Below, piece by piece: positions 1-11,948 of a DNA stretch of 64,000 nt. The DNA lies in assembly GCA_027859235.1 (NCBI GenBank), contig JAQIBE010000103.1, positions 4,321 through 68,320 on the forward strand, read 5' to 3'. The notes beneath the pieces are model-generated. The model was given only the letters and a program-made list of their open reading frames with translations. It did not search any database and was not told where the DNA came from. Position 1 is the first letter of the stretch, and every line of letters begins with the position of its first letter. The DNA comes from Desulfobulbaceae bacterium (lineage in GTDB: Bacteria > Desulfobacterota > Desulfobulbia > Desulfobulbales > SURF-16). A program made the position numbers and the translations under genes.

Positions 1-1283
1 TTGATGATACTTGGATATATGATGATATAGGCACACCAACGTACCAAGATACTGAAAACAGTATTCTTTACCTGCTCAATCAGGATGATGATGAAGATAT
101 GTGTGAAAGTATTGCTAAGTTTATTAGTGATTCATCTGATTTGAACCGAGATAGTTTTAGCCTAATTCACAGGATTCTTCGGCATAAATTTGATACTTTT
201 GAAGAAATACACAATTTACTAGATAAGAAAAATATAAAATCATTACCAGAGAAAATTGAAATATATGAGGATGTTTCTCTTTATGACAATAACAGTGTGA
301 CAGAAAAACTTGGAATCGATGAAGAGAGCCCACTTAATCACAACTCAGAAGATGATCAATCCTCATTACATGAAAATCATTCCTCAAAAGAGGGTGATAC
401 TCAAAGCGACACTAACACTTCGAGTGGAAAGCAAAGGGAGGCTCAAGCAGGTGTAGAAATTCCTCCACCCATAAAGCCTAAAAAATCAAATCCCTCTAAT
501 AAGGAGGATGATGCTAGTTCGCGTGGAGATCATAATCGGCATGGTCACAATGCGAATCAAAGGAGTCAGAAAGGAGGTGGCACTAATAGATCTGGTGAAG
601 CAAAATCATCCGTAAGCAACATCAGTAAGTTGAATTCAAACGCTAATAGTAAAATAGTTAGTTCTAATGACAGAAAGCCCGTTTATGTAGGTAAAGATAA
701 AGAAGTTGACCCTAATGAACAGCGGGAACAAAAAGAGCGTGCTACTGAAATTGGTAATAGAGGTGAGGATTACGTTTTAGAAAGCTCAACAAACTATCTT
801 CTTTATAAATCAAATAAATTTAAAAAGGCTCCAACAAACAACAAAGGGTACGATATTCTAGAAATAGATTCAAACGGAGATATAGTACGTTACATTGAAG
901 TCAAAACTTTGACAGGAGGGTGGGGAGAAGGAGGTGTTGCTGTCACCGAATCTCAATTGGAGTTTGCTCAGGGATATGACAATTGGTGGTTATTTGTTGT
1001 TGAAAATATAAACACACAAAATACCACTGTGCATATATTTGAGAACCCTGTGCAACAAGCTAACCGTTTTATGTTTGATCATAGCTGGAAACAACTTGCT
1101 GAGACTGCCAAAAAGAATCAGTCAGTAGCACCAAAAGAAGGGGATAAATATCGACTATCGGACGGTATATATGAAGTTAGTAGCATTAAACCTAAGGGGA
1201 AGTTCTATAAATTGATACTTAAAGAAACTCAAACAGGTAAAGAAGTTGCAAAAAAGTTTGATCCTTCTTGGGAGAAATGTTGA
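1..1283 (+). CDS. 3' part of a larger protein, open to the left window edge. A long Ser/Asn/Asp-rich low-complexity linker is followed by a DUF3883-like PD-(D/E)xK nuclease-fold domain and a short C-terminal beta-rich tail.
   Basis: Frame 3 is open from nt 3 with no stop, so the ATG at 99 is probably internal. The block EIGNRGEDYVLE...KGYDILEIDSNGDIVRYIEVKT...TESQLEFA...WWLFVV matches the DUF3883 restriction-endonuclease-like pattern (E..D..EVK) as I remember it. Confidence 0.7.
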   Translation, partial: DDTWIYDDIGTPTYQDTENSILYLLNQDDDEDMCESIAKFISDSSDLNRDSFSLIHRILRHKFDTFEEIHNLLDKKNIKSLPEKIEIYEDVSLYDNNSVTEKLGIDEESPLNHNSEDDQSSLHENHSSKEGDTQSDTNTSSGKQREAQAGVEIPPPIKPKKSNPSNKEDDASSRGDHNRHGHNANQRSQKGGGTNRSGEAKSSVSNISKLNSNANSKIVSSNDRKPVYVGKDKEVDPNEQREQKERATEIGNRGEDYVLESSTNYLLYKSNKFKKAPTNNKGYDILEIDSNGDIVRYIEVKTLTGGWGEGGVAVTESQLEFAQGYDNWWLFVVENINTQNTTVHIFENPVQQANRFMFDHSWKQLAETAKKNQSVAPKEGDKYRLSDGIYEVSSIKPKGKFYKLILKETQTGKEVAKKFDPSWEKC

Positions 1284-2977
1284 TGGTTAATATTATTCCA
1301 GTATTGTCTGTGGAGCAGATTGAAGAGATACCTTCAAGAGCTGAGCAGAAGGTATATAAAGCACTGGTTGAACAATTACCTAATGACTGCTTGGTTGTTC
1401 ACTCTCTTGAATTTATAAAACAAACGTCTAGGTTCAAAAGTCATGGAGATAGAGAAGCTGATTTTGTAATTTTTTCACCACGCTTTGGTGTTTTGGTTGT
1501 TGAGGTCAAAGGTGGTGGTATTAGTTATGATAATTCAATTAATCAGTGGTATTCGATTGATCGAAACAAGGATAAACATGAAATAAAAAATCCCGTTCGG
1601 CAAGCTAAAGATGCGAAATACGAAATAAGAAGCCATCTTCAGCAAAGACTAGGCAATAAAAAACTACTGCTTGCTCATGCCGTAATGTTTCCTGATATTG
1701 AAAATGCAGCTCCTTTGGTTAGCCCTAATATGCCAATTAACATAATAGGGGTTAATAGAAACCTTATTGATTTAAAAAAGTGGGTTACAGAGATTTTTGA
1801 TTACTGGGCAGGCGAACAACCCGTTCATGATGCTCTAGGTGAAAATGGGATCAAGGTTGCTGAACAAATCTACGGGAAGCAGGTTTCCATACGCCCTTCT
1901 TTACGCTCTGCAATAGAGAAAGAAGTTCAAAAACAAATTGAGTTAACTAATCAACAAAAAAATATCCTTCGGCAATTAAAAAGAAGAAAAGAGGCTGTGG
2001 TTGAAGGTGGAGCAGGTACGGGTAAAACAGTTCTGGCTCTAGACCAAGCTCAAACACTAGCAGATCAAGGGCTAAATGTTCTATTTCTTTGTTATAACCA
2101 AAGGCTGGGTAATGCACTCAAGATAAAATCACGGCATATTGACAACTTACACTCTATGGGCTTTCATGAGTTTTGTTCTTGGAGAATCAGACAAGTAGAA
2201 AGTAATACAGAACGTAATTTAATAGAAGAATCTAGGAACATCTACCCTGGAGACGATTTATATGATGTATTGATGCCTGATGCTTTGATTAATAGTTACG
2301 AATTAGCTCCTATTCAATACGATGTAATTTTAATTGATGAGGGACAAGATTTTAAACCTGAGTACTGGTTGGCTATTGAAATGTTGCGAGATCAACATGA
2401 AGATACAAAGCTCTATATCTTTCAGGATAGCAATCAGGCGATTTATACCAATAGTAACGATCTTCCAATTGATTGTGAGCCTTTATTTTTGTTTGATAAT
2501 TGTCGTAACACCAAATACATCCATAATTCTGCCTACCAGTATTACAAAGGAACTGAAGTATATGCTCCAGATTTAGAAGGAGAACCTGTTCGGCTTATAG
2601 AAAAATCTTCCCTGGGACTACAAGCAAAAGAAATTGATAATAAGATATCAAGGTTAATCAATACCGAAATTATAGACCCAGAGGATATTGCTATTGTCGT
2701 AATGGGGCAGTTTCATGAGGCGCAACTACTTTTGGAAAATACAAAAAATAGTCATTTGTGGGCTTTTAAAGAGTTCTCTCCAGTTTCTAAGGTATTAGTA
2801 GAAACGGAAAAAAGGTTTAAAGGATTAGAATCAAAAATTATTTTTCTTTGGATAATTGATGAAGAAGCTATAAATGATAAATTACTCTATGTTTCTATAT
2901 CCCGTGCTCGATTTAGATTGTGGGTAATAGGAACCACACCAATTATTCAAAGAACAAATCTAATGAAATTCACATAA
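1277..2977 (+). CDS. NERD-domain nuclease fused to an SF1 (UvrD/AAA_19-like) helicase
   Basis: N-terminal NERD pattern: EQKVYKAL...HGDREADFVIFSPRFGVLVVEVKGG. Walker A is GGAGTGKT and Walker B is VILIDEGQDF. The C-terminal UvrD_C-like motif is LLYVSISRARFRLWVI. The start is ambiguous (TTG 1268, ATG 1277, ATG 1283). ATG 1283 overlaps the upstream TGA as TGATG, with GGAG 8 nt upstream. Confidence 0.8.
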   Translation: MLMVNIIPVLSVEQIEEIPSRAEQKVYKALVEQLPNDCLVVHSLEFIKQTSRFKSHGDREADFVIFSPRFGVLVVEVKGGGISYDNSINQWYSIDRNKDKHEIKNPVRQAKDAKYEIRSHLQQRLGNKKLLLAHAVMFPDIENAAPLVSPNMPINIIGVNRNLIDLKKWVTEIFDYWAGEQPVHDALGENGIKVAEQIYGKQVSIRPSLRSAIEKEVQKQIELTNQQKNILRQLKRRKEAVVEGGAGTGKTVLALDQAQTLADQGLNVLFLCYNQRLGNALKIKSRHIDNLHSMGFHEFCSWRIRQVESNTERNLIEESRNIYPGDDLYDVLMPDALINSYELAPIQYDVILIDEGQDFKPEYWLAIEMLRDQHEDTKLYIFQDSNQAIYTNSNDLPIDCEPLFLFDNCRNTKYIHNSAYQYYKGTEVYAPDLEGEPVRLIEKSSLGLQAKEIDNKISRLINTEIIDPEDIAIVVMGQFHEAQLLLENTKNSHLWAFKEFSPVSKVLVETEKRFKGLESKIIFLWIIDEEAINDKLLYVSISRARFRLWVIGTTPIIQRTNLMKFT

Positions 2978-3016
2978 TCGGGTAGCCGGAGGTTTTTCTC
3001 CCCCCATCCCCTAACA

Positions 3017-3040
3017 CCCTGCATGCGGCTCCGCACAGGG
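3017..3040 (+). terminator. GC-rich hairpin downstream of the helicase gene (possible terminator, weak U-tract)
   Basis: CCCTG-CA-TGCGG-CT-CCGCA-CAGGG, read directly from the sequence. It is followed by cgtttcatc, so there is no strong T-run. Confidence 0.3.
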
Positions 3041-3219
3041 CGTTTCATCAAGATTACCGGGCCGTAGCCGGATTATGTTGACTTGAGATTGCCATATCCA
3101 AGATTTGATTAGATCAAATTCACCTCCGGTTGAGATGTCTACTGTACATGTATTACGTATATAGAGAGCAACTCCCATGTTTAGTATAGCCCTTTTGACT
3201 GAATACAACAGTGTGAACC

Positions 3220-3257: not shown

Positions 3258-3360
3258 CGTGTAAATGGTCAGCTTTCTGACTATTTTGATGAGTATGTTG
3301 AGATTTGTGAACGAGCTGACAATAGTGGCGATAATTGTTAGGTATCATTTATTAGGTGTA

Positions 3361-3423
3361 CAGTAGTAACCTCAACCTGGGGTGAGTTGAGAAATCCCTG
3401 AGGTTGGATGTGGCAATGTTAAT
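3361..3423. repeat. Copy 1 of a ~63-bp direct repeat (partner at 9843-9905)
   Basis: cagtagTaaCCtCaacCtGgggtgaGttgagaaatccctgaggttggatgtggcaatgttaat aligns without gaps to 9843-9905. The 3' 37 nt are identical, and the differences cluster in the 5' third. Confidence 0.9.
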
Positions 3424-3528: not shown

Positions 3529-3942
3529 TTAGTAATCATCCAAGTCTGGTCTTGCCTCGTAATAGATAACACTTTCAAAAGTTTCAATAATCACATCTAT
3601 GCTGGGGTAGTCACGAGTATCACCAGAGCCAGACATTGGCTGAATCCATCTATCCATCACCCCCCATGCATCGCTATTATGAAATTCAGATATATATCCT
3701 CTGATCGCCGATATAATGCTAGATGGTGAATCTTCATCGTCTAGATAACAGTATGGAGTCCAACTATCTTTGTTGCCCCATAAAGTACTGGTTATAGATA
3801 CTGCCGAGGGTAGAGAATCGTCATTTTTCCTATCATCTTCCCACTCTTCAAGGAGTGTTTCGAAAACAGTACTGAATTCAGGTAACGGCTTGATAGATTT
3901 CTTTGCTTCAGCGATAGGCTTTTGTGGATCTTGTGATTCCAT
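3529..3942 (-). CDS. Hypothetical small acidic Trp-rich protein (137 aa)
   Basis: ORF with GAGG 7 nt upstream of the ATG. The product is strongly acidic (runs of D/E, ends DLDDY). I recognise no family motif. It lies 162 nt downstream of the Hsp70-like gene on the same strand. Confidence 0.6.
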   Translation of the reverse strand: MESQDPQKPIAEAKKSIKPLPEFSTVFETLLEEWEDDRKNDDSLPSAVSITSTLWGNKDSWTPYCYLDDEDSPSSIISAIRGYISEFHNSDAWGVMDRWIQPMSGSGDTRDYPSIDVIIETFESVIYYEARPDLDDY

Positions 3943-4104: not shown

Positions 4105-5898
4105 TCAAATTCCTGAAATCGGGTTACGAGCTAAAACAAAACCTCCAGCATAACTACTCATATCTTGAACAATACGTTTTTCATCTATAATATTGGGCAT
4201 GCTTCCGCCAATAGCAACAGCTAGTTGTGGATATACTAAAGCAAGCTCAGGGTCATAATTAAACTCCTCAGGAACCAGAGCCATTTTATCTTTTGGAATA
4301 TTAATTCCGTGGGCAAGAATTACCCCATCTGCAAGCTCTGTCACCATGGGAAGAGTTGCGCCACCTCCTGTTAAAGCAATGGAAATACCATCCTTGCCAT
4401 ATTGCCTAACAACACCTTCTTTCATTGGTTTAAGCACAGCGTCAAACTTTTCTGCCAAATTCTTTTTAAATCGTAAAACCGTTTCATGCTGTAAGAACTC
4501 ATCCCTGTCGACAATGACTCGAGTATCATTAATGAGATTCACAGCACAATCACCATCGCGAAAAAGATCCTCTTTCAATGCTCTTACCTGCATCCTTAAA
4601 TGTTTAACTACATATGGTCGGTCAGGGTCATTATCGCGTATACCTGATTTTTCCATGATCATTTGTTGCAAGGCTGTGTCCAAAACATCTCCAGCTTGAC
4701 GAAGTGACTGATTGCACCCTTCAACAGGAAAGCCATTAAATAAATTCCTTTCCAGATCTTTAACCACAACAAATAAAGCAAGATCAGATGTGCCAGCACC
4801 AACATCAACAACCATAGCCAACCCCCTGAACGGCTCATCTTCTTGGAGTTTCGAACTGGCTACAGCTAATGGTTCTGTAACCCCCTGTGAAACTAAATAA
4901 CTTGGAAGTTCTTCTAGTTTGTCAATTTTGTCCAGAACAGACTTCACATCATAGATGTTTAGTCCGTCTTTCCATTGACCATGAAAAGTATCTGCAACAA
5001 TCTGAGCTTTAATGAGCATCTTTTGAAGTAATTTTTCTCCCCACTCCCGTCTTTCCTGATCCCAAGATGGTAAACCAAAATTACGTACTACATACCTTGA
5101 ACAATCATGAGCTTCCTCAAGCTCAGTACAGGCAAGGTCTGTTAAAAAACCTAAATAAATAATAATAGCATCACCCATTGACAAGGGGACATCCGTAGGA
5201 TTCAAAGAAGCTGACATAGGCTGCTGAAATGGAGTCGATTGCTTGAGACCAAGAATTAATACTTTTTTCAAAGAATCAAAACGCTCTCTGTTATCGAAAG
5301 AATCCGACTGAAGCGAAAGATTGATCGCCTCCTCACCTAGAAAAATATCACCATTATTACTGATCCACAGAGATGATGGGACGGGGTAAATATCCTTGCT
5401 TTCCCCATTTGAAGCCCTATGGCCCAACTTAAGCAACAAATTCTCAACTAATTCACCATCCTCAGCCATAGCAGCAAATGCTTTAGACATTGCCGTACCA
5501 AAATCCAAACACATTGTGATTTCCCTATCTTGGGGAGACTTAAATTCTAATGAAGCAAGATTTAACTTGATTTCAGCTCTTGGTTTTACTTGTGAAACAG
5601 ACTCTGTTTCGATTTTTACTTCTAGCTCAGACTCATCTTTTTCCTCATCACCACCCAGTTCAACTTCAATCTTTGGCTCTTCTTTAGGTTTCGTTTTTTT
5701 ATCAATAGGAGGTGCTGGGGTAATGATTTTTTGGAGATCAGTGGCCTCCGGAGTTGTAAACAACTCTAATGCAACTTGTAATGCCTCAATCTCCATGGCA
5801 GATAAAACACCAGAAAGTGTGCCTTGACCAGTCTCTGAATCTATCACCACACGAGAAAGCAAATTTTTTAACAATAGTTCTGCTATATTCTTATCCAT
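4105..5898 (-). CDS. Hsp70/actin-fold (ASKHA) ATPase: an Hsp70-like nucleotide-binding domain with a unique ~120-aa N-terminal region and no canonical Hsp70 substrate-binding domain
   Basis: Phosphate-1 motif is CLDFGTAMSKA. Phosphate-2 motif is VVDVGAGTSDLALF. Adenosine motif is ALTGGGATLPMV. The N-terminus is a short helical segment followed by a Lys/Glu-rich linker. An AGGGGGG RBS lies in the 14-nt gap after the upstream gene. Confidence 0.85.
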   Translation of the reverse strand: MDKNIAELLLKNLLSRVVIDSETGQGTLSGVLSAMEIEALQVALELFTTPEATDLQKIITPAPPIDKKTKPKEEPKIEVELGGDEEKDESELEVKIETESVSQVKPRAEIKLNLASLEFKSPQDREITMCLDFGTAMSKAFAAMAEDGELVENLLLKLGHRASNGESKDIYPVPSSLWISNNGDIFLGEEAINLSLQSDSFDNRERFDSLKKVLILGLKQSTPFQQPMSASLNPTDVPLSMGDAIIIYLGFLTDLACTELEEAHDCSRYVVRNFGLPSWDQERREWGEKLLQKMLIKAQIVADTFHGQWKDGLNIYDVKSVLDKIDKLEELPSYLVSQGVTEPLAVASSKLQEDEPFRGLAMVVDVGAGTSDLALFVVVKDLERNLFNGFPVEGCNQSLRQAGDVLDTALQQMIMEKSGIRDNDPDRPYVVKHLRMQVRALKEDLFRDGDCAVNLINDTRVIVDRDEFLQHETVLRFKKNLAEKFDAVLKPMKEGVVRQYGKDGISIALTGGGATLPMVTELADGVILAHGINIPKDKMALVPEEFNYDPELALVYPQLAVAIGGSMPNIIDEKRIVQDMSSYAGGFVLARNPISGI

Positions 5899-5912: not shown

Positions 5913-7364
5913 TTACTCTACTTTTTTCACTAAACCCTTTATGATTACAAAAGAAACACCACTATCACGAACTTGCTCCACAACAGGTCGAACAATACAA
6001 ACTTGACGAACCCCATTTCTCTCACCAATTATCTCATGCTCCATGGGGGCATATTCTTCAATATCCCCTGAGGTCCCTCGAACACGAAGATTTTTTCGTT
6101 TTGCCATAACCGCAATAGCATCACAAATTGTCACACCATTTTGCATCAAACGCTGAACACTTTCACCAAGGCGAGGATCGAGCATTTCTATTTCCGGTAA
6201 AATTTGTTGCTTGCCAACACTCTCTAAAGCCTGAAAACGCTGGGCATCAATTAATAATTCAGCCAACTGACAATCATCATTAAGTTGCTGTGATTCACCT
6301 ATGGCAACATCAAGCGGTGCTTCATTTTTCCCTTCCGCTAGCCAATTTTTTACATTATTCGCCACACCTGGCATTTGGGCTAATTTCTTCATTCTCTGGC
6401 GAGCAGTCTTTTTATCACCACAAGCTATAACAAGTTGGCCGGCTAAAGAGTCATCGGTTATGCCTTGTTTGGCAAGTATCAACATGGCTTCAGAAATATC
6501 TTGTACCACCTGTAACAGCGCCTTAGATTGTGGAGCATTTTTAGCCCAGACATTTGTAGGCTGCAGTGACTTAACAACTTTCAACGCAGAATAAGTCGTT
6601 GCTTCTGTGGCTAGGGAGAACCGCAAGCGAACCACTTCATGAATAACACCTGCAACCCCTGCTGTTGTATCTATGAGAGTATCTACTTTTTTAGACACAG
6701 GCACATCTTTAAAAGCAGCCCAACAGAGTGAAGCGAGTTGTTTCCCAGGTTCATCTCCAGGTTCACCTCTTATCTCAGCCATAGCAACTTGTAACCCATC
6801 CATAAGGCGCTTGAGACGTTTTGCTATACTTGTACCAGGATCTTCCGTTTCAGGGATAAAAGAACGAATTACACCCGCTAACTCCATAAGAACTGCAGAT
6901 AGATCTGGCTTCATCATTAACAATGCTTTAAGAAAAGCTACTCGAGACTGCTCTCCAGTCTCTTCATAAACAATAGCATTTGCACAATAATCAACTCCCC
7001 ATTTAGGCTGGACCTGTTCGCAAGCATAGCCCACATAACTGCGGTCGTCAGGTTCTTCCAATAAAAATGGCTCTGGTAATTCTTTGGCTAATGCCACCTG
7101 CAAAGAATCATAAATGGTGGCTCGTAACCGCTTTATGCTTGAAGCAAGACGACCAAGGGTTGCCACAGCGAGGAGACGATCTTTATCCTGGGCAGAGGTG
7201 TCACCAACGGTCTCCAATAAGCCATCAATACCAATCTGAAAACCCTTATCTTTTGAAGCAGCGTGATGTTTTCGGGCCGCAATGAGTTTCCGCAGAGCAT
7301 CATATTTTTCCTGTACCGTGCCCAATGAAAACAAGGTTGTTAATGTTTCCTGTTTATTCTTCAT
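5913..7364 (-). CDS. Hypothetical 483-aa protein, mostly helical by composition, with a short beta-type C-terminal domain. It is the first gene of the Hsp70-like module.
   Basis: Long ORF with a plausible ATG, tightly coupled (14-nt gap) to the Hsp70-like gene. No catalytic motif recognised. The C-terminal ~55 aa resemble the GrpE beta-domain by eye (see findings). Confidence 0.8.
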   Translation of the reverse strand: MKNKQETLTTLFSLGTVQEKYDALRKLIAARKHHAASKDKGFQIGIDGLLETVGDTSAQDKDRLLAVATLGRLASSIKRLRATIYDSLQVALAKELPEPFLLEEPDDRSYVGYACEQVQPKWGVDYCANAIVYEETGEQSRVAFLKALLMMKPDLSAVLMELAGVIRSFIPETEDPGTSIAKRLKRLMDGLQVAMAEIRGEPGDEPGKQLASLCWAAFKDVPVSKKVDTLIDTTAGVAGVIHEVVRLRFSLATEATTYSALKVVKSLQPTNVWAKNAPQSKALLQVVQDISEAMLILAKQGITDDSLAGQLVIACGDKKTARQRMKKLAQMPGVANNVKNWLAEGKNEAPLDVAIGESQQLNDDCQLAELLIDAQRFQALESVGKQQILPEIEMLDPRLGESVQRLMQNGVTICDAIAVMAKRKNLRVRGTSGDIEEYAPMEHEIIGERNGVRQVCIVRPVVEQVRDSGVSFVIIKGLVKKVE

Positions 7365-7654: not shown

Positions 7655-7900
7655 TCAAATCAAACACCACCCTCGCAAACCCCGCAGCTTCTCCTCAGCC
7701 TCTTCCGGCAGCCCCATCTTCTTGACCTTCTCATACTCGGCCAGCACTGCCTCCTTACTCTCTTCAAGAACCCCTTCCAGACGGCGCAATAGGGTAAAGG
7801 GCAGGATCATCCGGCCATACTGGGACTGTTTAAAATCACCGCGCAATAGGTCGGCAAGAGACCAGATATAGGCGGCGAGGTTGTTGCTTGATTGGGTCAT
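7655..7900 (-). pseudogene. hsdM: N-terminal remnant of a type I restriction-modification methyltransferase (HsdM_N domain only)
   Basis: From the ATG at 7900: [67 protein letters not shown]. This is the conserved HsdM N-terminal pattern. The frame ends after 81 codons, with no methyltransferase catalytic domain anywhere downstream. Confidence 0.7.
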
Positions 7901-7946
7901 GAATCTCTTTTCTTGTATAGGATAAAGGGTAAGGGACAGTGGGCCA

Positions 7947-8948
7947 CTACTCTGCTGGCCAATAGAGCCGGACAAGCGGGATCAGGGCGCGGCCTTCCAG
8001 GTCAAAGTTCTCATAATGAGTGACCACCAGGTTGGCCAGCTCGTCAAGGTCAAGCAGGGTGAGAGGGACATTGGCCCGGTCTGCCTCATACTTGGCATCT
8101 TTGGTAAAGCCGCCTGTGCTGATGTAGAGGGCACGGTCACCTTCTCTGAGGCCACCAAGAAAACTTCTAATATTCTGGGAGCCCATGGCAGATCCTTGTC
8201 GATGTTTGACCTCTGCCTTAATACGGGGTTCTTCCAGGCCTAAGCCATCGGGTGAGGCAAAGACATCCACACCCCGGTCCGGACCTTTAGGTGAAATGCG
8301 GGTACGATACCCCATGCCACGCAGGATGGCGGCGGTCAGCTCCTCCATCTCATCGGCAGAGAGGGCAAGGATCTTGTCCTTGATAAACTCATGGGCCTTG
8401 CCCACCATCTCCTGACGGATCTCGTCCAGAGTGGTCTTTTCATCTTCCAGGCTTTCGTTGCCACTTTCAGGGGATTTCCCACCCTGTAAGGCAGACTGAA
8501 TGTCGGCCCAGACATCTTCGTTAACGGCAAAGAGGGTGAGGGTACTGCCTAAGGAGTTACGAGAGCTGGTTGACAGGTCATCACGTTTGACCCGGCTTTG
8601 CCAATCAACCTCCCTGATATGGGGATAATCTTTGGCAACACCAGGTTTGTATTGGTATTCACTTTTAATGACGCCAACAAGGTATTCACGTTGGCCAGGA
8701 TCGTATGAAATGACGTGGTCGCCGACTTGGACGACAGAACGAAACTTATGAAACATGGCAACAGAGTTGCCGATGGCACCCTTGCGCTCATTGGGGTAGG
8801 TCTGCTTGATGGATTGACGGATTTTCTCAAGTTCGCTGACCTGGCTCATATCCCCCAGCTCTATCCAGCCTACAGCCACATAGCCTTTGGCAAAACTACC
8901 GATAAGTCGTCCACCCTCACCGGCCCGAATCATCCAGACATTTTTCAT
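7947..8948 (-). CDS. mrr: Mrr-family restriction endonuclease (N-terminal DNA-binding-type domain plus C-terminal Mrr_cat PD-(D/E)xK domain)
   Basis: The C-terminal block [60 protein letters not shown] is the classic Mrr catalytic core (D...E-x-K). Confidence 0.8.
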
Positions 8949-9842
8949 TATCGCCTCTCTGTGCCCTTATCAGCATGGCAACGTGTACCATATTTTCACA
9001 TGTAAAAAATAGACCTGGGATCAATCAAATACACAGAAACAACACTTCCGCACATCACAGGCCAATTCCTCACAAAAAAATCCCTTCACATATGAACATA
9101 TTTATCATTGATGTCAAAGGGATATACGTAATAAAGATATGACATGGAGAAGAGCAGCTGCTCGCAAAATAATCACTGAGGGGAGTTTGTCAGGGGCCTG
9201 CAATACGTAGCTTACGTATGACGACATCAGCTATTTCCTACGCATGTGATTTCTGGTGTGTTTTTTTCTTTGTCATAGAGTGTATGAGCTCCCCTTGCCG
9301 CTGGTACGAAACCTCACCATAGCTCAGGAAGGTTGTTAACACTTTTTCATGGCCGAGATTCTGACTCCATGCCTTAAACACTTCAGGGGTATGGCAGACC
9401 TTTTCGCCTAATTACACAAGAATGCCAAAAAGAACTACTAAAGATTTCCACCTCATTAAACCTTGTGGTGGCAAGGGTTGTAGGGGAGCTTGAGGGAAGA
9501 TAGGGCCGCCGCTGTATATGCGGGCCTTGGTTAAAAGCGCAATTGACCGCCCCATAAGGGGAAACGAGCAAAAAGCAAAAAAGGTGGAAGTCGCCCATGG
9601 AAGTCGAAAATATGAGACAAAGCACGAAGAGCCTTTATCACACACCCCCCTAACAGTCGTTATAATACTGTATGTGATCCTATAACACGTGCTGCTGCTG
9701 AGAAAAGAAAGGTTATGTTAAACCTCCCTCATATTAAGCAGAAACAAACTCTATGGGCGACGAGGCAAGGTTGCAGGCAAAATCTAATTTTTTTCCTGAT
9801 TGTCTCTAAATCAGAGCAGATATAGACCAAGCCTGACATTCA

Positions 9843-9905
9843 CAGTAGGAAGGTTAACTTAGGGTGAATTGAGAAATCCCTGAGGTTGGATGTGGCAATG
9901 TTAAT
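9843..9905. repeat. Copy 2 of the ~63-bp direct repeat (partner at 3361-3423)
   Basis: Same alignment as for 3361-3423. This copy is immediately followed by the 178-bp composite repeat. Confidence 0.9.
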
Positions 9906-9909
9906 GTGT

Positions 9910-10087
9910 GAGATAACCGGCTTGCCAACCAGTTGGCTACCAAGTTTAAACGGTTATAATTATTAAAACCCACTCAAGAGAACGCGCGTGCTCGCAAGTC
10001 GGGCTGATTAACTTATTATGTGATTTCAATAAGTTATATTGTTTTTTGGTCAAGCTAGTGTGGAACTTTTCGCACTTCAATGTTGAA
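9910..10087 (-). repeat. 178-bp composite repeat, inverted copy (partner at 11771-11948)
   Basis: The reverse complement aligns end to end with 11771-11948. Three blocks are conserved: TTCAAC-N-TTGAAGTGCGA, ACTTGCGAGCACGCGCGTTCT, and TAACCGTTTRARCTTGGTAGCCAACTGGTTGGCAAGCCGGTTATCTC. The stretches between them are variable. Confidence 0.85.
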
Positions 10088-10150: not shown

Positions 10151-10972
10151 CTAGAGCTTCTTTTCATACTTAAAAACTTTCTCACTCCTTATGTCACTGT
10201 AAGTGTTTCTAATATAATTATCATTTTGTGGAACTGGAATATCCGAAAATTTAAGTGTGAAAAGGTTATCATCTTGGCGACAGTTTTTCCTACTACTGCC
10301 GAACAAACCTTTTTGACTGTAATAATAAAATTCACCTCCATAAAATGAAATTGACTGATTGTAGCTATATTGATCGTTAGCATGAAAACTTATTTCCATT
10401 TGTCCGATTATTGAGTCTGTTTTAATACCTGTTAGCCTAACGCTAATTTTTTTACTTATATATTCACTTGGAATATGAAACCCTTCTTTCCCTTCATTAC
10501 TCTTAATCTTAAAAACTCTAAACATAATAGTATATTCAATTATAGTCCTTATATGATTTCTTAAAGTATGATCATGTTGAGATAAAAAATTAAATTTACT
10601 ATTATATTTACTGGCTTGAGGGAACAAATGAGCTTTGCTGCAATTAAATGTTGACAGTTTAAAACTTTCAATGACTCTATCAGTTGTGGCATCTAAAAAC
10701 TCATTCCATGCTTTAATCTCTTGATCAGATATTGCATGTTTTAGATCTAGTATTTTTTGTTGCTGTATTCTATTTTCGTTTTCTTTTCTCAGTTCTAACT
10801 TTTTTATTTCATTTTCTTTTTCATTTTTGTTGATCCAACTATTGGAAATAGTCATTGTTTTGAAATTAGCAATTATTTTGATATTTTCATTTTTGATTAC
10901 ATCAAAGTTTGTTGATATGTCTTTGCCGTTAATGCTAATAACGCATTGGAGGGTCAGGTCTTGAAAAGCCAT
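10151..10972 (-). CDS. Hypothetical AT-rich orphan protein (274 aa from the ATG at 10972) with a central Lys/Glu/Asn-rich probable coiled coil
   Basis: Long ORF. The ORF-track N-terminal extension (to 11089) reads through repeat sequence and looks non-coding. MAFQDLTLQ is the first credible start. No family recognised. Confidence 0.6.
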   Translation of the reverse strand: MAFQDLTLQCVISINGKDISTNFDVIKNENIKIIANFKTMTISNSWINKNEKENEIKKLELRKENENRIQQQKILDLKHAISDQEIKAWNEFLDATTDRVIESFKLSTFNCSKAHLFPQASKYNSKFNFLSQHDHTLRNHIRTIIEYTIMFRVFKIKSNEGKEGFHIPSEYISKKISVRLTGIKTDSIIGQMEISFHANDQYSYNQSISFYGGEFYYYSQKGLFGSSRKNCRQDDNLFTLKFSDIPVPQNDNYIRNTYSDIRSEKVFKYEKKL

Positions 10973-11138
10973 ATTCTCAAATGGGGAAGGACCTGGGGTC
11001 AGGCTTCCAAGTTGACAAAGTAAGGAAAGAGACAGGCAAAAGAAAAAGTGGGGGTCAGGTCTTGCCCTTTGCACAACAAATAAATGCACCGGGTAAACCG
11101 GTGATTATCGCGTTATGCCCTAAAAATAAAACTTACGC

Positions 11139-11770: not shown

Positions 11771-11948
11771 TTCAACTTTGAAGTGCGACAAAATTTAATA
11801 AAAAACCAGGCCACACCAACCTAAGTGCATGAAATTGCATAACAAATCAATCAACCCAACTTGCGAGCACGCGCGTTCTTTTAAGTCAGCTTCAACAATT
11901 TTAACCGTTTGAGCTTGGTAGCCAACTGGTTGGCAAGCCGGTTATCTC
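11771..11948 (+). repeat. 178-bp composite repeat, forward copy (partner at 9910-10087). It contains an attC-like bulged hairpin at 11902-11944.
   Basis: It starts 2 nt after the parE-like stop. In the hairpin, a continuous right arm GTTGGCAAGCCGGTTA pairs with TAACCG-[TTTGA]-GCTT-[GGTA]-GCCAAC, leaving two extrahelical bulges on one arm. Confidence 0.85.

Follow-up and report, generated by a model that had tools for sequence, protein, structure and literature searches.

The window analyzed here is a 64,000-nt stretch of contig JAQIBE010000103.1 from a Desulfobulbaceae bacterium (GenBank assembly GCA_027859235.1, positions 4,321 to 68,320 of the forward strand). Its first 2,977 bases carry the 3' part of a long gene, tmtA, followed by a gene for a NERD nuclease fused to a superfamily 1 (SF1) helicase. 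They are probably the distal end of an anti-phage module of two genes, namely a Tiamat system in a form with a helicase partner. The first open reading frame (ORF1) lies in frame 3 and is open from base 3 to a TGA stop at 1281–1283 (426 codons, no upstream stop), and the window part contains no plausible true start codon. This fragment matches the PADLOC TmtA model PDLC03966 with an E value of 3.8e-87. It consists of a low-complexity linker, which is conserved less than any other part of the protein (column identity 0.19–0.20 among 16 homologues), a DUF3883/NOV_C nuclease domain with the motifs GYDIL, RYIEVKT and WWLFVVE, and a small C-terminal beta domain (coordinates in Table 1). ORF2 encodes the NERD and UvrD-like helicase domains in one polypeptide. 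A preliminary description made from the letters alone had read ORF1 as a truncated gene with a linker followed by a DUF3883-type domain, ORF2 as a NERD/UvrD-like fusion starting at a TGATG overlap, and the two together as an AT-rich, coupled unit with two nuclease domains and one SF1 motor; the Pfam searches, the junction and the base composition agree with each of these points.

At the junction, the TGA stop of ORF1 and the ATG at 1283–1285 share one base to give TGATG. Alternative in-frame starts for ORF2 are TTG 1268, ATG 1277 and TTG 1280. ATG 1283 is favored because a GGGAG motif is located 8 nt upstream and because translation from this codon yields the N-terminus M-V-N-I-I-P, which is common to the orthologues (M-(A/V)-N-I-I-P). 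ORF2 ends at TAA 2975–2977. The GC content is 0.35–0.365 in bases 1–3000 and 0.346 in the whole two-gene unit vs approximately 0.50 in the core genes of the window. The two-gene module, with 34.6% GC in a genome of about 50% GC, was acquired horizontally.

An exact look-up of the ORF2 protein (the identical public protein is annotated as 'NERD domain-containing protein [Desulfobulbaceae bacterium]') led to three short public contigs, and one of them (L001, 7248 bp) was used to complete gene 1. L001 is identical to window positions 1–3042 (0 mismatches) and adds 4206 bp leftward. The complete gene 1 product has 1814 aa and matches PDLC03966 with an E value of 0 (1264 bits, aa 6–1760 vs profile positions 27–1650 of 1655). 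Pfam SACS is found at aa 9–231 (E 1.1e-44) together with a weak HATPase_c_3 match, and NOV_C at aa 1643–1730. The best PDB match of the head is the sacsin repeat region (entries 5v44–47, E 2e-17). Extension to the left, which had been proposed as a way to look for a GHKL/HATPase domain, thus recovered a sacsin-type GHKL head. The protein is laid out as a sacsin/MORC-type GHKL ATPase, a middle part of about 1200 aa whose fold was not recognized, a disordered linker, the DUF3883 nuclease and the C-terminal tail. DUF3883 has been placed in the PD-(D/E)xK superfamily (PMC3424549). Among 30 orthologues the GHKL residues E30, N34, D36, D37, G100, G103 and G105 are invariant, and the DUF3883 residues D1672, E1687 and K1689 are conserved in 29, 28 and 29 proteins, respectively. 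Profile match, GHKL head with an intact Bergerat-fold N-box and G-box, and DUF3883 domain are all those of the TmtA family. Because the PADLOC TmtA model is matched end to end, gene 1 is, by this comparison, the tmtA gene of a Tiamat system. A tblastn search of PLSDB plasmids with TmtA gave three short matches to the DUF3883 domain only, with no informative context. No relative turned up when IMG/VR viral contigs were scanned with the TmtA alignment, so there was no sign of a phage-borne module.

In ORF2, UvrD-helicase and AAA_19 match with E values of 2.5e-9 and 3.9e-9, and the NERD domain precedes them. The helicase motifs are Walker A (GGAGTGKT, 2006–2029), Walker B/motif II (DEGQD, 2336–2350) and motif VI (YVSISRAR). 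The NERD catalytic residues D60, E74 and K76 (EADFV...EVKGGG) are invariant in 30 of 30 TmtA-linked orthologues and are conserved in more distant NERD-helicases as well. In the same set the helicase residues G247, K248, T249, D352, E353, Q355 and R408 are invariant, and R541 is found in 29. All four enzymatic sites (GHKL, DUF3883, NERD and SF1) therefore appear, from residue conservation, to be under selection. The best PADLOC match of ORF2 is the model RTasNERD-Hel (PDLC03813, E 2e-68, aa 18–546 vs profile 15–507 of 519). Segments specific to the TmtA-linked clade were limited to the first 13 residues and scattered positions, with no extra domain.

The pairing of the two genes was examined in two samples. 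A helicase-first scan with one genome per species gave 80 loci among the matches listed. All seven loci with a helicase of at least 36% identity have a TmtA of 1620–1980 aa ending 0–140 nt upstream (two Colwellia, Sulfurovum, a Planctomycetota and a Phycisphaerae metagenome-assembled genome, Corallococcus and Bellilinea), and more distant helicases have TmtA upstream in 0 of 73 loci. A TmtA-first scan of metagenomes gave 68 loci among the matches listed, and the count was restricted to 27 loci in which the TmtA 3' end is complete and is followed by 200 nt or more of sequence. The helicase is directly downstream in 23 of these, with its start within a few bases. Targeted look-ups found the pair also in V. 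natriegens and in three further contigs (L090, L092 and L087). In two protein searches, at least 37 TmtA and helicase clusters match in the size of the longest contig. In a neighbor-joining tree of 101 NERD-helicases (a simple tree, built without support values), the 32 TmtA-linked helicases all fall into a single clade. Over 30 complete pairs, the pairwise identities of TmtA correlate with those of the helicase at r = 0.95 (none of 2000 Mantel permutations was as high), a correlation that reports co-inheritance and not physical contact. Mean pairwise identity is 0.55 for the helicase vs 0.37 for TmtA, so the helicase is the slower-evolving protein. Stop and start overlap or are separated by no more than 2 nt in 11 of 11 pairs (TGATG, TAATG, ATGA or TAG followed directly by ATG), each with a GGAG-like motif in the penultimate TmtA codons, upstream of the helicase start. 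The genes that flank the pair vary by locus (type I restriction-modification [R-M], RelB/YafQ, NYN, Tn7-like genes, transposase) and the conserved unit is therefore the two genes. On these genome comparisons the helicase is a conserved partner of TmtA and not a chance neighbor, in a pairing that spans six phyla. A check of whether the two genes co-occur in other genomes had been proposed at the outset, and they do.

Distant TmtA homologues with 24–25% identity (L087:460–7635, L134 and L137) also retain the C-terminal tail and a coupled helicase of the same clade. The best PADLOC model for the L087 protein (P0240), the only one of the three that was scanned, is PDLC03965 and not PDLC03966. Since distant homologues keep both the tail and the same-clade helicase, the partnership covers more than one PADLOC TmtA subfamily. 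In Colwellia maritima MSW7 (L004:4597–9998), TmtA is split over three frames, the last ORF having 564 aa, and the downstream helicase is intact (73% identity); this is either a pseudogenized tmtA or an assembly error.

The C-terminal tail of TmtA is largely confined to helicase-linked proteins. Here TmtA extends approximately 54–70 residues past the end of the PADLOC profile, and 67–78 residues follow the nuclease domain in 30 of 30 helicase-linked TmtAs. Four TmtAs without a helicase have the tail missing or cut off. The stand-alone Vibrio TmtA matches PDLC03966 (1358 bits) to its own C-terminus and has no tail; the L124 TmtA, with HipA as the next gene downstream, also has none; and in L089 and L095 the tail was lost through an integrase-bearing insertion. 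An AlphaFold model of window positions 705–1280 (pLDDT 85.6) shows an alpha-beta core of the PD-(D/E)xK type and, after it, a beta domain of four strands, and these strands of the tail are modeled at a pLDDT of about 90. Foldseek matches of the nuclease-domain model are weak, to the SPARDA DREN nuclease and Hjc. The tail is a candidate docking module for the helicase.

Table 1. Features of the tmtA-helicase locus and the adjoining defense genes (window coordinates)
Feature	Position	Strand	Basis or remark
tmtA 3' end	1..1283	+	codons 1389–1814 of a 1814-codon gene; first 4206 nt left of window
Low-complexity TmtA linker	~276–711	+	TmtA aa ~1480–1625; 79% polar/Gly/Pro, 13% hydrophobic
DUF3883/NOV_C PD-(D/E)xK domain of TmtA	765..1028	+	Pfam PF13020, E 8.7e-12, fragment aa 255–342
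TmtA C-terminal small beta domain of ~70 aa (tail), SH3/Tudor/KOW-like	1071..1280	+	model, weak fold matches
Coupling junction	1270..1285	+	GGGAG 1270–1274 (in the tmtA Trp-Glu codons), 8 nt, then ATG overlapping TGA
NERD nuclease + SF1 (UvrD-like) helicase	1283..2977	+	564 aa; Pfam NERD, UvrD-helicase, AAA_19
NERD PD-(D/E)xK domain	1337..1684	+	ORF2 aa 19–134; Pfam PF08378, E 1.3e-12
SF1 helicase core	1925..2932	+	ORF2 aa ~215–550; motifs from orthologue alignment
PDC-M61B	4105–5898	-	PADLOC candidate, E 5e-142; faint Hsp70/FtsA-like (actin-fold ATPase) similarity
PDC-M61A	5913–7364	-	PADLOC candidate, E 9e-65
HsdM N-terminal fragment	7655–7975	-	
PDC-S02 Mrr-like nuclease	7947–8948	-	PADLOC, E 2.5e-91

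Judged by profile matches, the tmtA-helicase module is located in a defense island, beside the candidate systems PDC-M61 and PDC-S02. A 64-nt direct repeat (89% identical, 3360–3423 and 9842–9905) brackets the block of PDC-M61, HsdM fragment and PDC-S02 and may delimit an inserted cassette. An inverted repeat of 132 nt (83% complementary, 9910–10041 and 11817–11948) surrounds a segment of 30% GC, in which a 312-aa ORF (10151–11089, minus strand) has no Pfam match; this segment resembles a mobile element of small size. Core genes (DnaJ, CobS, CobT through PNPase) are found from approximately 12.7 kb. A match to group II intron domain V/VI is located at 2977–3045 on the minus strand (Rfam 34.3 bits, below the gathering score of 40, E 0.001) and has its start precisely at the stop codon of the helicase gene. 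All three public short-read contigs with the pair break at window positions ~3027–3053, which suggests a multi-copy element. Beside the intron-like 3' end no reverse transcriptase (RT) or maturase ORF was detected, and a minus-strand ORF at 3529–3942 has no Pfam match. In other genomes, one TmtA-helicase pair (L090:8757–11916) adjoins Tn7-like TniQ/TnsD/TniB genes and may be carried by a transposon as cargo. In two Vibrio species (L084:1–5920 and L091:1–5908) tmtA is found approximately 80–90 nt after a co-oriented type I R-M operon (hsdM-hsdS-hsdR), an arrangement that is independent of helicase presence.

Several observations weigh against reading bases 1–2977 as part of a helicase-partnered Tiamat module. 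The helicase is absent downstream of TmtA in 4 of the 27 metagenomic loci: in L095 TmtA is cut at aa 1757 by the integrase-bearing insertion (L089 is of the same type), L128 is a Vibrio-type stand-alone TmtA, in L121 a minus-strand gene follows TmtA, and L122 has no downstream helicase and carries a DrmA-DrmB-PLD-NERD-helicase operon directly upstream of TmtA. Stand-alone TmtA is also present in V. splendidus and V. alfacsensis. Since Tiamat was reported as a single-gene system and stand-alone TmtAs exist, TmtA is presumably functional without the helicase. The link between tail and helicase is not absolute because L121 and L122 have the tail and no downstream helicase. Foldseek matches of the tail, to EF-P/eIF5A domain I and the PcrA/UvrD C-terminal Tudor domain, are weak (E 0.016–0.04; TMt 0.75 to the Tudor domain, 5dma), and they agree in kind, all being SH3/Tudor/KOW-like. 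The AlphaFold model of the helicase is mediocre (pLDDT 72.9, pTM 0.39); its Foldseek matches (TM 0.2–0.28, best to SLFN11/SLFN14, UPF1, UvrD and GajB) are those of SF1 enzymes generally, because the domain arrangement is poorly predicted. The sequence upstream of tmtA in this genome is covered for 44 bp only. The high mirror-tree correlation, as stated above, does not speak to contact between the proteins. Complex formation, substrate and trigger of the pair are inferred throughout, from the known properties of GHKL ATPases, SF1 helicases and PD-(D/E)xK nucleases and from what is reported for nuclease-NTPase complexes. With these points taken into account, the helicase-partnered Tiamat module is still the probable reading.

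GHKL ATPases undergo ATP-driven dimerization. In the mechanism we propose, TmtA and the helicase would assemble into a complex, with docking likely through the TmtA tail. ATP-driven dimerization of the GHKL head would engage or clamp DNA, or sense infection; the SF1 motor would then translocate on, feed or unwind phage DNA, and the two nuclease sites would degrade that DNA. Nuclease-NTPase defense operons generally form complexes, and complex formation controls nuclease activity (10.1101/2025.07.10.664194). In its fullest form the proposal describes an ancient two-component Tiamat subtype that has gone unrecognized, in which the clade-specific tail recruits a dedicated NERD-SF1 helicase to create a four-activity DNA degrader, and the NERD-SF1 helicase is a portable cassette that was taken up on separate occasions by Tiamat, DISARM-like, BREX, Druantia-like and UG34-RT systems. 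We put this forward tentatively; it is a serious possibility that falls somewhat short of being probable. The helicase might instead regulate TmtA in the style of Hachiman or Druantia III, by detecting phage replication or damage intermediates and then licensing TmtA for indiscriminate DNA degradation (abortive infection), or by holding TmtA in an autoinhibited state until a trigger arrives. Such a role would suit the general control of nucleases by complex formation, the precedent of the two-gene nuclease and helicase pair DruE-DruH, which uses substrate-dependent assembly and autoinhibition, and the identity values of 0.55 and 0.37, which suit a conserved sensor or motor with a faster-evolving partner. 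However, the NERD triad is invariant in all 30 helicases and the helicase protein is therefore probably itself a nuclease and not a regulator only, and we regard the regulatory role as a serious though less likely alternative.

It could also be argued that two independent single-gene systems, Tiamat and an Nhi-like or NERD-helicase effector, simply adjoin each other in a defense island. Defense genes are known to cluster, Tiamat has been described as a single-gene system and stand-alone TmtAs exist, and NERD-SF1 helicases occur elsewhere after DrmB, beside BrxC, DruE-like genes and UG34 RTs. This explanation is improbable in view of the near or overlapping junction in every one of the 11 pairs, the monophyly and co-divergence (r = 0.95) of the TmtA-linked helicases, the co-occurrence in 7/7 and 23/27 loci from six phyla with varying flanks, and the clade-specific tail on TmtA. 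Less credible still is a non-immune function, as a DNA repair or recombination module or a mobile-element competition module carried as cargo (e.g., of a Tn7-like element). One relative is found beside TniQ/TnsD/TniB and others beside integrases, and GHKL ATPases and SF1 helicases also serve in repair; yet models of a reportedly validated defense system give the best full-length match, defense genes flank the pair here and in relatives, the distribution is patchy and horizontally transferred with foreign GC content, and the IMG/VR scan showed no relative on viral contigs. A role outside defense is thus very improbable, because of the full-length match to a described defense system and the surrounding defense genes.

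If the pair is a helicase-partnered Tiamat, it offers a handle on the Tiamat mechanism and suggests a DNA-directed, motor-assisted nuclease complex. The Tiamat definitions in annotation tools arguably need to be split into subtypes. Tiamat would join the systems that share a NERD-SF1 helicase cassette, which bears on how defense systems are assembled from reusable modules. The advance is incremental and does not amount to a new kind of immunity.

Among known proteins, human Schlafen 11 and 14 (SLFN11/SLFN14), which are immune proteins with a nuclease and an SF1 helicase, match the helicase best both in structure and in PDB sequence searches. Both these and sacsin are remote (11–14% identity, TM 0.2), and they differ in nuclease fold and biological context. 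Hachiman (HamAB), Gabija (GajAB) and Druantia III (DruH-DruE) resemble the locus in being operons of a nuclease and an SF1 or SF2 motor. The locus differs from them in sequence-family membership, in having a nuclease in both proteins and in the presence of a GHKL ATPase. GajB models match ORF2 only in stretches of 40–150 aa (best E 4e-9), and there is no GajA-like neighbor.

Other NERD-SF1 helicases linked to DISARM-like, BREX or DruE genes share full-length homology (26–35%) with ORF2, including the NERD triad and all helicase motifs. They all fall outside the TmtA-linked clade, and the DISARM-linked enzymes follow DrmB or PLD genes; the neighbor-joining tree places 20 DrmB-linked helicases apart from the 32 TmtA-linked ones. 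NERD-SF1 helicases located after DrmB or fourth in DrmA-DrmB-PLD operons were observed in L122:1–6940, L012, L024, L082 and about 17 more loci, and no description of the DrmABC plus NERD-helicase architecture was found. Others are located beside BrxC (L014, L019 and L023) or DruE-like genes (L016 and L058), and also beside GajB-like genes. The NERD-SF1 helicase appears to serve several defense systems as a reusable accessory.

Nhi and AbiO share with ORF2 a single polypeptide with an N-terminal nuclease and an SF1 helicase, as well as the defense context; in ORF2 the nuclease is a NERD domain and the protein has a large partner, which we call obligate. The preliminary description had likened the locus to a single-gene nuclease-helicase protein whose functions are split over two genes. 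This does not hold, since ORF2 alone has both nuclease and helicase. We rejected the reading as a split Nhi: the Nhi model PDLC02372 matches ORF2 only at aa 216–321 (E 5.2e-11, profile 178–276 of 470), around Walker A, and the AbiO model only at aa 215–282, also the Walker A region. The UG34 RT-associated NERD-helicase (RTasNERD-Hel) has the same architecture, NERD followed by a C-terminal helicase, and its profile is matched over nearly its full length. It differs in genetic context, as the upstream gene here is tmtA and no RT is nearby. In UG34 this helicase is cluster 485, a partner present in only 7 of 17 members (Mestre et al., 2022). An RT-associated assignment was rejected because no RT domain was found in any of the ORFs scanned, up to 22 kb; the group II intron-like 3' end on the minus strand, which has no ORF, is the sole trace of a retroelement.

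Tiamat itself is the closest system. It is listed in the literature among single-gene PD-(D/E)xK systems of unknown mechanism, and its PADLOC models (PDLC03964–03972) consist of a single gene. It was reportedly validated in experiments as a single-gene anti-phage system by Millman and colleagues in 2022, and DefenseFinder probably models it as a single gene too. The PADLOC models of Tiamat do not include the helicase, and no description of a TmtA-helicase pair was found in the searchable literature. The preliminary description had left undecided whether the pair is a known subtype, and it is already classified by half: gene 1 belongs to a known family (TmtA, PDLC03966), and the helicase partner stands outside the PADLOC definition of Tiamat. 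Like other TmtA proteins, the one encoded here has the sacsin-type GHKL head and the DUF3883 nuclease with their motifs intact. Unlike the described system, the locus has a second gene, for the NERD-SF1 helicase, which is translationally coupled to tmtA and inherited with it, and its TmtA bears a small beta domain past the end of the profile. Because the single-gene definition does not fit it, we file the locus as a variant of Tiamat.

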